Origin: Pseudomonadota bacterium
Lineage (GTDB): Bacteria > Pseudomonadota > Alphaproteobacteria > Caedimonadales > UBA1908
DNA length: 64,000 bases
Reading direction: 5' to 3'
Assembly (NCBI GenBank): GCA_020161545.1
Contig: JAIUNT010000001.1
Coordinates: 25,471 to 89,470 of the forward strand
Shown: positions 6,227 to 9,520 of the stretch, in pieces
Layout of the letters: every line of letters begins with the position of its first letter
How positions within the stretch are numbered: the first letter of the stretch is position 1
The notes under the pieces: generated by a model
Told to the model about the DNA's origin: nothing
What the model saw: only the letters and a program-made list of their open reading frames with translations
The model's database searches: none
Translations under genes and position numbers: made by a program

Positions 6227-9200
6227 CTATGTCTCCTCCCAGATAATGTCATAGGGGGTCATATAAAGGCGCCTACCTGGCTTGTCCCGATCTTCGGGGT
6301 CCAGGATACCGCCGTCAGGATGACGTAAAATCTCCCACTCAGATTTACGCCCTCGCAGATGTGAATGCGGATTTTGAATAAGAACATTTTTAATATGATC
6401 AGGAATGAGCGTGAGATTCACGTGAGTCCCTTGAATGAAAAGTGTCGAAATTTGTTCTATTCTCAAAAGATCCATCAAACCCTTTTGCCCGAGGTATCGC
6501 CCCTCAATCTCAAGTATTTTCAGATTCGGAAAATGATCTTCTAGTCCACGCAGCGCAACAGGCGCGTAACTGAGATAAGCGTCGTCCAATATCAATGTTT
6601 CAACGGCAGGCATATCCTCAGTAAAGGAAATCTCATCTCCTCTTTCAAGACCGGTAGGAGATCTTAAGCTGAGCGTTTTAAGCTCCTTGAAATGTCCCAA
6701 ACCAGACGTCTTTGTTTTCCCTGGGTTTAAAGTCAATGCTTCAAGGCTCCAATTGTCGCCCTCGACAACCAATTCTTTGACATTGGTGCGTGACAGATTA
6801 AGCTCATCTATCTGCAAGTGATGAACACCTTCAATGGTCTCAAGCTGCTCAGGCATGAACATCCAGTTATCTTTCGGAAAAAAGGACCCATGCGCTCGCA
6901 GCGCTTGCAGTTGGGATTCAGAGTGGATGTTCATCGAGGGACGCGCGACCAAATGCTCAAGGCCCGTCACTTCTTTGGTGCGCACAGGGATAGAAAGTTT
7001 CTCTAACTGCGGCATGTCTTGTGTGATGCTGATCCGTTCAATGGGAAACTCCAACAACTCAAGGGTCTTGGCGCCCTTAAAAACACTGATATCCAGCTGT
7101 AAATGATCAGCAGTGGACGACGTAGGCTTACCTGAGAGCGTCTTAACACTGGCAAAGGCCAAAGGAAGACGCGCGGTCTTGGCTGCAAGTTGTATAAGAC
7201 TGGGGGAAATCTGATCAACTGAAGCCCTATCACGCCATGTAAACTCCTTGAGTAGACCCGCAAGGGTGTGATCAAGGGTCCCCATGACCTCGTCACTGTA
7301 AGACGCTAAATCTCCTGCCAAAAGACCGAGCACAAAGGCTGTAATATGACTGTTCCCTTCAAAGTCATGACCCATGAGGCTGGAAAAGAGACTTTCTTTT
7401 TGCGCAAGATGCGGGTCCATTGCACTTGCAAAAGAAATCAAACTTGATTCCACACTGCCTTGTGGAACAAGATTTTGATCCTCTAAAAGAGCTTTTAGCT
7501 TTTGAGTGTATACAGGCCCAATGTCATTTTCTTTGGCAAGTTTGAGTTTTGAAATCTCCCCATGCCCCCGATCCATATCAAGGGTAAATTTAAATGCATC
7601 GTTCACAGAAATAGAAAGCTTTCCATAAAGACGCTCACCGTCTAAATAGTGACGACTTGAAATGCGATACGTGTGATGGGGATTCAAAAATGTGAGGAGT
7701 TTATCAAACTGCTCCTCTAACCATGCTCCATGTGGCGACTCTTCAGCATATGAGTTTTGCTCCCATACTTCTAACGCTTCATACCATGCCTCTTCTTCAT
7801 CAGAATTTTGAAATTCTGGAGGATTTTTATATGGGTTCTCAGGCGTCTTAAAAGGCGTCAAGCCAAAGCCCAAAATCTTCTCAAAAACATTCAAGATATT
7901 CTCAAAATCTGTCTCAAGATCATGGGTACCGGCCCCTGAATTTTTGATATCGCTCCCATAACGAATGACGGAATCTGACTGTGTGGACGTACTTGCGCCT
8001 GTGTGCCCTTCTGGAAGATGATTTAAATCCCCCACAACACGGTTCCACAAAGAACGCATGGCGGGAGAACCTGATTTGGCCGTGTGCACATCGGACTGAA
8101 TTTGAAAAAAATCGAAGAGATGTTGAATATAGGGGTTCTGAATGCCTTTACTTTTCAGGTGATCTAGATCAAATTTGTGCGTTTTCTGATCATAGAGAAT
8201 AAAGTTAAAGATATGGCGGATGGTCATTTCCCCGCAATCTGCAAAATGCTTCTTGGAGACTTCTAACCGCCCGTCCTGGGAAAGAGGTGCAATACGCAGA
8301 AAATCGGCCACCCCGTCTTGACGCGCACGCAAAGAAATAAGCCCCTGAATGTCCTGTAACGCGCCTTTAGGGGCGTAAAATGAATCATTGGCGCGGTCAT
8401 AAACCCATGCTCTTCCGTTACTCAGTACGTTTGTGTAGGGAACGCTCGTACCCTTTGTCAACCTCACAAGGTTGTAAATATCATCCAGATCAAAGGCAGA
8501 GTCTTGAGGACCATCTTGCTTTTCCATGAGGAGGGCGAGATCTTTTTCGTCATCAAATAAATTGCTGCCATGGGGATTGGTGAAGGTGTCCTCAATAATT
8601 TTATTTTCAGCGGACTGAAGGCGTTGCATCTCTTCCATGTAACCCCAAAGATCTTCCTGTTTGTCAAAATGGAAGCACAAAAAACCAAGGATGACTTGCT
8701 CAATGGTATGAACCGGCGCAAGCGTTTTGATCTCTTGTGCATCATTGGCAACGGCTGTGCCCGACGAAGAGGGAGCCGCACCCGAAGAAGACGCGCCTGT
8801 GACATCAGGAGAGGGAGAGCGAGTCTCTCTTTTTTTGGGCGCACGCACAGGTTGCGCGGGCAAAGGCGAGGCACTTACTTCCTCATGGGAAACGGCAAGG
8901 GCTATGTCAGCGAGAAATGGATTGAGGTGCGCGCTAGAGAACTCTTGATAAGAAAGGCTTTCCTTTATGCGCTGACCATAGCTTTTCTTAAGCTCCTCAA
9001 GGCGTTTTTGATGCGCCTTGGTGACTCTTCCCTCATCCAAGGCACTGTATTTTTCAGTCAAACGCAAGGTTGAGACTTGCGCTAGGTGATTTTGGATCGC
9101 AGTGCGCACGTCTTCCACATAACACATTAAAAGAGCAACTGTTTTTGGGCTTTCAACATAGTTTGAAAAGTGCTGATGATTTGTGTCACCTCCCACAGTG

Positions 9201-9520
9201 TCGCCCAGATTACCATCCACAGAAGGAAAAAGCACACGTGTCACACGCCACAAAGGATCATCGGATTTATCATTTATATAGCGACGCTCTTGAGCGTCAT
9301 CTTGATCGTCATCATTTGGCTCTTGCACACCCCAATGAAACCGAATGTTGGGAATAAGATGATCAAGGGCAACACGCCCCACTGTAGGGGAAAAATACTT
9401 CTTCTTAAAATGCCGTGTGACACCCTTAAAAGCAGCGTCAGGCACAGCCCCATAGGACGACGCCGTTAACAGCAACGAGCCAAACAATGATGAATAGAGT
9501 ATTTTCTTAAATCTGCGCAT
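6227..9520 (-). CDS. large secreted protein with C-terminal irregular leucine-rich repeats; N-terminal two thirds unrecognised
   Basis: 1097 aa uninterrupted ORF with signal peptide MRRFKKILYSSLFGSLLLTASSYGA. It has a Ser/Pro-rich linker (SPSPDVTGASSSGAAPSSSGT). LxxLxL-type repeats fill the last ~330 aa (LEKLSIP, IDELNLSRTNVKELVV, LEALTLNP, LKTLSLRS, VETLILDD, LKILEIEG). The region is visibly more A/T-rich than the flanking backbone. Confidence 0.8.
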   Translation of the reverse strand: MRRFKKILYSSLFGSLLLTASSYGAVPDAAFKGVTRHFKKKYFSPTVGRVALDHLIPNIRFHWGVQEPNDDDQDDAQERRYINDKSDDPLWRVTRVLFPSVDGNLGDTVGGDTNHQHFSNYVESPKTVALLMCYVEDVRTAIQNHLAQVSTLRLTEKYSALDEGRVTKAHQKRLEELKKSYGQRIKESLSYQEFSSAHLNPFLADIALAVSHEEVSASPLPAQPVRAPKKRETRSPSPDVTGASSSGAAPSSSGTAVANDAQEIKTLAPVHTIEQVILGFLCFHFDKQEDLWGYMEEMQRLQSAENKIIEDTFTNPHGSNLFDDEKDLALLMEKQDGPQDSAFDLDDIYNLVRLTKGTSVPYTNVLSNGRAWVYDRANDSFYAPKGALQDIQGLISLRARQDGVADFLRIAPLSQDGRLEVSKKHFADCGEMTIRHIFNFILYDQKTHKFDLDHLKSKGIQNPYIQHLFDFFQIQSDVHTAKSGSPAMRSLWNRVVGDLNHLPEGHTGASTSTQSDSVIRYGSDIKNSGAGTHDLETDFENILNVFEKILGFGLTPFKTPENPYKNPPEFQNSDEEEAWYEALEVWEQNSYAEESPHGAWLEEQFDKLLTFLNPHHTYRISSRHYLDGERLYGKLSISVNDAFKFTLDMDRGHGEISKLKLAKENDIGPVYTQKLKALLEDQNLVPQGSVESSLISFASAMDPHLAQKESLFSSLMGHDFEGNSHITAFVLGLLAGDLASYSDEVMGTLDHTLAGLLKEFTWRDRASVDQISPSLIQLAAKTARLPLAFASVKTLSGKPTSSTADHLQLDISVFKGAKTLELLEFPIERISITQDMPQLEKLSIPVRTKEVTGLEHLVARPSMNIHSESQLQALRAHGSFFPKDNWMFMPEQLETIEGVHHLQIDELNLSRTNVKELVVEGDNWSLEALTLNPGKTKTSGLGHFKELKTLSLRSPTGLERGDEISFTEDMPAVETLILDDAYLSYAPVALRGLEDHFPNLKILEIEGRYLGQKGLMDLLRIEQISTLFIQGTHVNLTLIPDHIKNVLIQNPHSHLRGRKSEWEILRHPDGGILDPEDRDKPGRRLYMTPYDIIWEET

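Follow-up and report, generated by a model that had tools for sequence, protein, structure and literature searches.

Background

What can be said about the function of a large predicted secreted protein whose own sequence matches nothing in the usual databases, and is such a protein an oddity of one genome or one member of something much larger? This question is raised by the longest open reading frame (ORF) of a 64,000-nucleotide stretch (called here the window) of contig JAIUNT010000001.1, from alphaproteobacterial assembly GCA_020161545.1. The gene lies on the minus strand and encodes 1097 amino acids (aa), the runners-up in the window being 805 and 763 aa long; a first-pass annotation, made from the letters alone, had already singled it out as the largest ORF of the stretch, correctly so. 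We think that its product is probably an enzyme of a new kind, directed at a host. Stated more precisely, and here we are tentative and would put the chances a little short of even, it would be a secreted thiol enzyme, targeted by leucine-rich repeats (LRRs) and acting on host proteins, from a large uncharacterised family of protist-associated alphaproteobacteria (Holosporales and relatives). A Sec signal is found throughout this family, which combines a single module bearing a Cys/His signature of catalytic type with a hypervariable LRR domain and has a distribution centred on lineages of protist symbionts.

A large family outside the domain databases

Taken alone, the protein has no match in Pfam (2025 version), NCBIfam (2026) or the PDB sequences (2026), and a homolog search returned 13 close proteins, all of them named 'hypothetical' and all from alphaproteobacterial or 'Proteobacteria' metagenome-assembled genomes (MAGs). 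The impression of an oddity conveyed by the first-pass annotation disappears once a profile of the first ~790 residues is scored against 1.84 billion cluster representatives (clusters at 50% identity): 1034 representatives match at E<=1e-3, 599 at E<=1e-10 and 239 at E<=1e-30, which gives a family of at least 1034 cluster representatives. None of ten family representatives that were looked up has an informative protein name, and a second homolog search, made with a profile of the core, gave 2 proteins only. There is no description of the module in the literature that we searched. Secreted proteins of intracellular-type bacteria that couple an LRR 'address' domain to a catalytic one are already a familiar kind; the module itself, with its predicted Sec-dependent export, appears to be undescribed, and is absent from Pfam, NCBIfam and PDB.

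Among contigs taken at one genome per species, relatives are found in a Holosporales MAG, in Caedibacter varicaedens (an endosymbiont of Paramecium) and in several 'Alphaproteobacteria' MAGs, and it is their presence in such lineages that suggests a host-associated setting for the family. At least two copies occur in one MAG (L002, L008); paralogs of the target protein were also sought within the window, and none was found. At two loci, L004 (4917-8671) and L014 (3322-5361), two adjacent ORFs stand in place of one gene, which could be the result of a frameshift, of pseudogene formation or of an assembly error; at locus L003, near-identical to L004, it is intact. Between these two near-identical genomes the flanking genes are 93-96% identical, and the family gene 87-88%. 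Family members are also present on contigs binned as Thiotrichales and as Verrucomicrobiales (one bin each, L006 and L013), either because they were mis-binned or because the family has been transferred beyond the Alphaproteobacteria.

One module interrupted by a variable arm

The order of the parts is constant family-wide: signal peptide, N-terminal segment, variable insert, core, helical bundle, LRRs (Table 1). The signal peptide, which had been noticed in the first reading of the sequence, has the expected layout (a positive start, a hydrophobic stretch, small residues at -3 and -1), and the same layout, with a cleavage site of the type AxA followed by K, recurs in 33 of the 42 family members whose N-terminus is intact, the site lying ~6 residues ahead of a conserved FKGVT motif; truncated gene calls account for most of the remaining nine.

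The N-terminal segment that follows is the best-conserved region of the protein (33-74% identity to the 11 homologs that cover it), with G48 kept in 137/137 sequences and both D84 and G103 in 138/138, and its confidence in the AlphaFold model (pLDDT) is 90-97. It contains the acidic segment described earlier, which turns out from the homolog alignment to be mostly an insertion peculiar to the target protein. The helical insert varies strongly in length and sequence (6-23% identity apart from the closest ortholog), and in other members hundreds of residues may separate the two conserved blocks. The Ser/Pro low-complexity linker had also been rightly recognised (residues ~218-264); in the full-length model residues 221-262 do not reach a pLDDT of 50, and in the N-terminal model the block means across 220-260 are 48-72. 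The linker is missing from the more distant homologs P0009-P0013.

The alpha/beta core carries most of the motifs that we discuss below (PY361-362, SN367-368, FADCxExxxRH at 426-436, RSxWNxVVGDLN at 489-500, Y521, N541 and a four-stranded sheet at 618-661), and the helical bundle that joins it to the LRRs has its own conserved residues (W762 in 118/135 sequences, D764 in 122/135). Identity to the nearest ortholog, P0002, is 74% in the N-terminal segment, 56% in the core, 50% in the helical bundle and 35% in the LRR.

An analysis of covariation (mean-field direct coupling analysis, DCA, on 135 sequences, hence noisy) recovers the registers of predicted beta-hairpins and the packing of the domains; among the strongest couplings, several link N-terminal residues 93, 132, 133, 135 and 139 to positions 273-299 in helices 272-301. 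Since the two regions share their conservation and are linked by these couplings, we consider that the N-terminal and 'middle' regions, previously treated as separate, are one module (residues 25-150 and 265-790) split by a variable arm. The other half of the earlier description, that they contain no recognised domain, still stands.

A catalytic-type Cys/His signature

The suggestion that the middle region could hide an enzymatic domain fits the alignments. In an alignment of 157 sequences with an overall identity of only ~25%, C429 is kept in 153/153 sequences and H653 in 143/145, together with R489 (152/155) and N541 (148/150), and D428, E431, R435, H436, N439, N368, R376, N493 and Y521 are all more than 90% conserved. 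Three broad alignments (A3-A5) agree: C429 and Y521 are invariant in all of them, as are R489 and H653 in at least one (with conservation above 90% in the rest). C429 is moreover the lone conserved Cys of the family, no second one being retained, so that a conserved intramolecular disulfide should not be possible.

The AlphaFold model of residues 1-790, built with 70 sequences, has a pLDDT of 84.2 and a pTM of 0.86 (74.3 and 0.76, respectively, for the full-length model). The two models agree that helix 429-442 begins with C429, that a helical region (453-612) stands between the Cys helix and the sheet, and that H653 opens strand 653-661, the last one of the four-stranded antiparallel sheet 618-661. 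A Cys at the N-terminus of a helix, combined with a His on a sheet strand, is a hallmark of papain-like thiol enzymes, and the predicted secondary-structure positions of C429 and H653 fit this layout; covariation offers no more than single links (444-656, 442-620 and 365-659) joining the Cys-helix region to the His sheet. Two other segments are coupled to the Cys helix as blocks: the PY..SNG segment, for which 14 pairs exceed the 99th percentile against an expectation of 4.8, and the Y521/N541 segment, with 12 pairs against 4.4 (the 99th percentile of the null being ~11). The best Foldseek match of the N-terminal model, GlyQ, was rejected as noise (E 0.066, TM 0.15, rmsd 14 A).

A degenerate and fast-evolving LRR domain

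Scanned singly, the target sequence gives no LRR profile match in Pfam or NCBIfam, even at E<=1. Read literally, this would tell against the irregular C-terminal LRRs of the first-pass annotation; it is overruled by the family-level and structural evidence, on which the assignment can now be based. In the aligned region of the 13 close homologs Pfam calls LRR_EndoS in 9/13 and LRR_4 in 7/13 (LRR_8 is called too), and the LRR types found among 39 relatives are LRR_4 (25/39), LRR_EndoS (20), LRR_8 (12) and the RNI-like LRR_6 (10). The family profile matches internalin (InlA, InlB), Roco and SDS22 chains in the PDB with E values from 1e-32 to 1e-21, and in Foldseek the model of the target protein itself matches SDS22 (6hkw, E 2.4e-4, probability 1.00, TM target 0.48), as well as InlF (4fmz), InlB variants and the Legionella LRR protein 4q62. 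Short strands recur through residues 819-1049 of the full-length model, with stretches of low confidence at 860-868 and 879-900. Taken together, the LRR calls in homologs, the family profile and the matches of the model indicate that the C-terminus is an LRR solenoid despite the silence of Pfam. Of the folded regions its repeats evolve fastest (identity to P0002 is 35% here and 56-74% in the N-terminal segment and core of the module), and the domain is ~190 residues shorter than in this closest ortholog, judging from the deletions in alignment A1. The eukaryote-like character proposed for it is not demonstrated: the LRRs of the relatives are of the bacterial SDS22/internalin type, some being RNI-like.

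A full-length match to an autotransporter or adhesin family was looked for and not found; Pfam and NCBIfam give no autotransporter beta-barrel and no characterised adhesin family, and the C-terminus consists of the LRRs and a disordered tail. The tail motif K(S/x)EW...KPGRRxY...WE is limited to the closest clade (8/123 long members), and we have rejected the idea of a family-wide C-terminal secretion motif, KPGRR...WE being clade-specific. A relationship to NLR/STAND proteins was likewise considered: NLRP9 and NLRC4 are matched by the full-length model only (TM 0.16-0.20, rmsd ~25 A), and this reading was abandoned since the matches vanish once the LRR is removed. No P-loop NTPase (NACHT/NB-ARC) is detected by Pfam in the target or in the relatives scanned.

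Proposed function and its alternatives

The mechanism that we propose would run as follows. Signal peptidase would cleave after residue 24 and the mature protein would leave the cytoplasm. The ~760-residue module (N-terminal segment, alpha/beta core and helical bundle) would fold as one unit and act as an enzyme, with Cys429 as nucleophile and His653 as base, and with the other conserved polar residues (D428, E431, R435, H436, N368, R489, N493, Y521, N541) placed around the Cys helix. The rapidly diverging LRR solenoid would pick the protein target, most plausibly from the host. Chemically, a thiol-dependent reaction on a protein substrate, either hydrolysis or transfer, would be most likely: a protease, an isopeptidase, a deamidase or a thioester-forming ligase. 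The role of the LRR in target binding is suggested by the SDS22/internalin-like solenoid, by its faster divergence in comparison with the module, and by the fact that the gene diverges more than its flanks between L003 and L004.

We infer that export goes beyond the periplasm and that the target belongs to the host. A precedent is Holospora, which releases Sec-type periplasmic proteins into its host (PMC5911502). The type VI system is the only candidate delivery route that reviews name for Holosporales, and they list no characterised effectors (PMC11909080). The 89-kDa periplasmic invasion protein of Holospora was considered as a possible relative and set aside; this comparison was made by description, the protein being described in the literature as Holospora-specific.

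Several observations weigh against a thiol enzyme acting in a host, and they should be stated together. Neither Pfam and NCBIfam nor PDB profiles and Foldseek revealed a thiol enzyme similar to the module in sequence or fold: in the PDB, a profile of 11 N-terminal sequences retrieved only noise (E above 1) and a profile of 34 core sequences had zero matches at E<=10; a Pfam scan of these 34 sequences at E<=10 produced no weak match that recurs among members; and Foldseek, run with the N-terminal model against PDB and the viral models of BFVD, returned nothing at E<=1e-3. There is no conserved third triad residue after His653. The block formed by the Cys helix and the His strand is not enriched in covariation (3 pairs, 3.4 expected), DCA on 135 sequences being too noisy to prove Cys-His proximity. 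No neighbour gene is conserved across 14 loci, except between the near-identical genomes L003 and L004, so that the neighbourhood offers no functional hints. The Sec signal delivers only to the periplasm, and the outer membrane would remain to be crossed. Finally, the window belongs to an uncultured alphaproteobacterium with no established lifestyle. In TopA this bacterium shares ~60% identity with Rhodospirillales, and its closer relatives, at 70-94%, are metagenomic sequences.

One may therefore ask whether an enzyme has to be invoked at all. The module could be a stalk or scaffold presenting the LRR to a host ligand in a non-enzymatic surface or secreted binding protein (an adhesin or invasin), its conserved residues being structural. 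Many bacterial LRR proteins, internalins for instance, are purely binding proteins, and it is internalins that the LRRs of the family match best; the Sec signal, the lack of a recognised catalytic domain and a module fold that matches no enzyme would all be understandable. A mere scaffold, however, is not expected to keep a Cys in 153/153 sequences, a His in 143/145 and some ten polar residues above 90% when overall identity is ~25%, and neither an LPXTG motif nor an autotransporter barrel nor a lipobox was found in the target protein, so that we regard this explanation as unlikely, if still worth a hearing.

The same conserved residues could instead bind a metal such as zinc, with C429, H436 and H653 as ligands together with D428 or E431, and with CxE used as in deaminase-like or other metallo-hydrolases. 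[C/H]xE at the start of a helix is indeed a zinc/catalytic motif of the deaminase superfamily. C429 and H436, seven residues apart on one helix, would share a face of it, conservation extends to H653, D428 and E431, and a free catalytic thiol would run a risk of oxidation in the periplasm. A metal site is nevertheless rather improbable in our opinion: the second Cys pair (PCxxC) is not conserved, and no match to a deaminase or metallo-hydrolase was found by Pfam, PDB profile or Foldseek. An LRR-targeted thiol enzyme remains the reading that we prefer.

Composition and genomic surroundings

The coordinates of the gene, of its parts and of its neighbours are collected in Table 1.

Table 1. Parts of the gene and neighbouring ORFs (positions in the window; residues of the target protein)
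Feature	Position	Strand	Remarks
Whole gene	6227..9520	minus	ATG-to-stop ORF, 1097 codons + stop (ORF list, translation)
Sec-type signal peptide, residues 1-24	9449..9520	minus	MRRFKKILYSSLFGSLLLTASSYG followed by AVP; predicted cleavage after SYG; read from sequence
Conserved N-terminal segment, residues 25-150	9071..9448	minus	G48, R60, D84, FPS98-100, G103
Acidic segment, residues 67-81	9278-9322	minus	EPNDDDQDDAQERRY
Variable helical insert, residues 151-217	8870..9070	minus	Long helical hairpins; helices 154-162, 168-188, 196-217
Ser/Pro-rich low-complexity linker, residues 218-264	8729..8869	minus	Predicted disordered
Conserved alpha/beta core, residues 265-668	7517..8728	minus	Conservation over 157 sequences
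Cys429 codon, candidate nucleophile	8234..8236	minus	Codon checked
His653 codon, candidate general base	7562..7564	minus	Codon checked
Helical bundle joining core to LRRs, residues 669-790	7151..7516	minus	Helices 669 to 789, pLDDT 83-97
Degenerate leucine-rich-repeat solenoid, residues 791-1050	6371..7150	minus	LxxLxL motifs, ~9-12 irregular repeats
C-terminal tail, residues 1051-1097 + stop	6227..6370	minus	Predicted disordered, pLDDT <50 for 1052-1091
Peptidase_S8 subtilase	4065-5936	plus	Convergent with target; own signal peptide, probable start = internal MTMRYLSLMGFLSISFLATPPAMA
Five tandem paralogous ORFs	9693-15333	plus	375, 363, 339, 354, 316 aa; 22-51% identical to first

With a GC content of 46.2%, against 53.1% for the window, the gene belongs to the low extreme of this DNA (only 1.3% of 3.3-kb segments have GC as low), and its GC at third codon positions (GC3), 0.449, is the lowest among the 46 ORFs of the window (median 0.621), immediately followed by that of the convergent subtilase (0.481). 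The two genes are thus more A/T-rich than their flanks, in agreement with the first-pass annotation. We cannot follow it as far as foreign origin, which is not demonstrated. The ortholog at locus L001, 52-58% identical to the window protein, lies in a different neighbourhood (enolase, amidase, KdsA) and shows the same offset (GC of 45.6% against 52.1% in its own flanks); a GC deficit of 5-7 points is observed at 5/10 family loci; and a scan of the window revealed neither direct repeats flanking the gene nor an integrase, the single tRNA of the whole window, at 35.5 kb, not being a flanking one.

A recently acquired foreign island that took its low GC from a lower-GC donor would explain no more than the composition and be compatible with any function; it would account for the two lowest GC3 values of the window being side by side, for the fact that most relatives reside in genomes of 39-45% GC, and for the different genomic positions of orthologs. 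We nonetheless give it little credit, since the L001 ortholog and the deficit at half of the loci speak for a persistent gene-specific bias, the usual marks of mobile elements (tRNA, integrase, flanking direct repeats) are lacking, and further unannotated ORFs of the window are GC-poor as well. The GC pattern fits a persistent bias specific to a class of genes (accessory, fast-evolving, probably weakly expressed) at least as well as a recent transfer.

These other GC-poor ORFs lie at 28584-30146, 44809-46251 and 61464-62525, all on the minus strand, with GC3 values of 0.495, 0.534 and 0.483 (median 0.621); Pfam matches neither of the first two (520 and 480 aa), and all three could be further accessory genes specific to the lineage. 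Within the window GC is lowest in the kilobase 56001-57000 (41.9%), which contains no ORF of 200 aa or more and is located between a TauE-family gene (55084-55857) and the long ORF that comes next (57119-58420).

Upstream of the gene are iscS, iscU, iscA and hscA, on the plus strand, and truA is found beyond the five tandem paralogs. Each of these paralogs has a signal-peptide-like N-terminus (..APAFAS..), they share motifs such as LLxEAYxLFPS..KAKxLLSLLKxWP..PLHL, and Pfam and NCBIfam scans gave no match for them; they look like a second uncharacterised family of predicted exported proteins adjoining the target. The signal peptides of the target, of the subtilase and of the tandem paralogs lead us to view the hscA-truA stretch as a cluster of exported, lineage-specific proteins. 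A protein identical to the target (P0001) is present in public MAG and metagenome records, and its pairing with the subtilase recurs in an independent ENA metagenome contig (L015). The window also encodes a PAS-GGDEF-EAL signalling protein (42036-44000, plus strand), a P-type ATPase and a GCS2 glutamate-cysteine ligase, the presence of which indicates that this genome is not the minimal, highly reduced genome of a symbiont.

The recurrent pairing with a second predicted exported hydrolase, and a Sec signal that by itself predicts the periplasm, could be taken to mean that the protein is a periplasmic or envelope housekeeping enzyme working on a bacterial substrate (in envelope remodelling, for example) and not directed at a host, a possibility that we consider very unlikely: a fusion to hypervariable LRRs whose type changes would be unusual for a housekeeping envelope enzyme, such enzymes seldom outpace their neighbours in evolution or become disrupted in close relatives (as in the split ORFs of L004 and L014), and the family is concentrated in symbiont-type lineages.

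Implications

Coming back to the LRR-targeted thiol enzyme that we favour, a bolder version of it can be formulated: the module would be an undescribed thiol-enzyme fold (a ligase or isopeptidase of the ubiquitin system, for example, or another protein modifier) wired to interchangeable LRR 'address' domains, existing in more than 1000 variants in protist endosymbionts and reaching the host by a Sec-dependent route, not by type III, IV or VI secretion. We place this version on the doubtful side; if it were true, this Sec-dependent route would contrast with the type III, IV or VI delivery of known LRR-enzyme effectors.

The molecular understanding of Holosporales and related protist symbionts is very poor, and the family provides a concrete candidate for the manipulation of eukaryotic cells. 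It is worth testing: it has at least 1034 clusters, its structure is well predicted and lies outside Pfam, NCBIfam and PDB, it combines a catalytic-type signature with a hypervariable domain for recognition, and it may represent a new enzyme fold. A more general lesson is that a profile search made with a single sequence can overlook a degenerate LRR and a large conserved family alike.

Comparison with known systems

The systems that come first to mind are the LRR-containing ubiquitin ligases of Shigella and Salmonella (IpaH, SspH, SlrP), in which an LRR targets a Cys-dependent catalytic domain, the NEL domain; the target protein has the same two-part plan, its catalytic domain being putative. 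The NEL domain is all-helical and has a CxD catalytic motif, and the family likewise has an acidic residue two positions after the Cys, in the form of CxE. There are also differences. The order of the domains is reversed, the LRR being C-terminal in the target; its core is predicted to be alpha/beta, with a four-stranded sheet, in contrast to the all-helical NEL; and IpaH proteins use type III secretion without a Sec signal, whereas the target has one. Pfam finds no NEL in the target or in the 39 and 13 relatives scanned, and neither PDB profiles nor Foldseek gave a match to it. Membership in the IpaH/NEL group was rejected on fold, domain order and sequence.

Papain-like thiol enzymes, and especially the Lot deubiquitinases of Legionella, which are OTU-type papain-like enzymes with large helical insertions, resemble the predicted module in its layout, with a Cys at the N-terminus of a helix, a long helical insertion (453-612 in the target) and an antiparallel sheet carrying the His. 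However, no similarity of sequence or in Foldseek can be detected, the third triad residue conserved after the His is missing in the target, which has many additional invariant Arg, Asn and Tyr residues, and its module is much larger (~760 residues).

For the C-terminal half of the problem, the references are the internalins, proteins of the SDS22 class and Legionella 4q62, whose solenoids are of the same class. Compared with internalins and SDS22, the repeats of the target are degenerate, lack the canonical Asn ladder, escape Pfam and are shortened with respect to orthologs; unlike internalins, the target has no internalin cap, inter-repeat domain or wall anchor, and the bulk of it is made up of an unrelated N-terminal module.

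There is finally the case of SidC and SdcA, also from Legionella, whose SNL domain is a Cys-His-Asp ubiquitin ligase with a fold of its own. SidC is a type IV substrate without LRRs, and the target matches none of its PDB structures, either in sequence or in Foldseek. What the two have in common is a large catalytic domain of more than 500 residues (a putative one in the target), a Cys and a His that are widely spaced, an intracellular bacterium as its bearer, and no relatives outside its own family.

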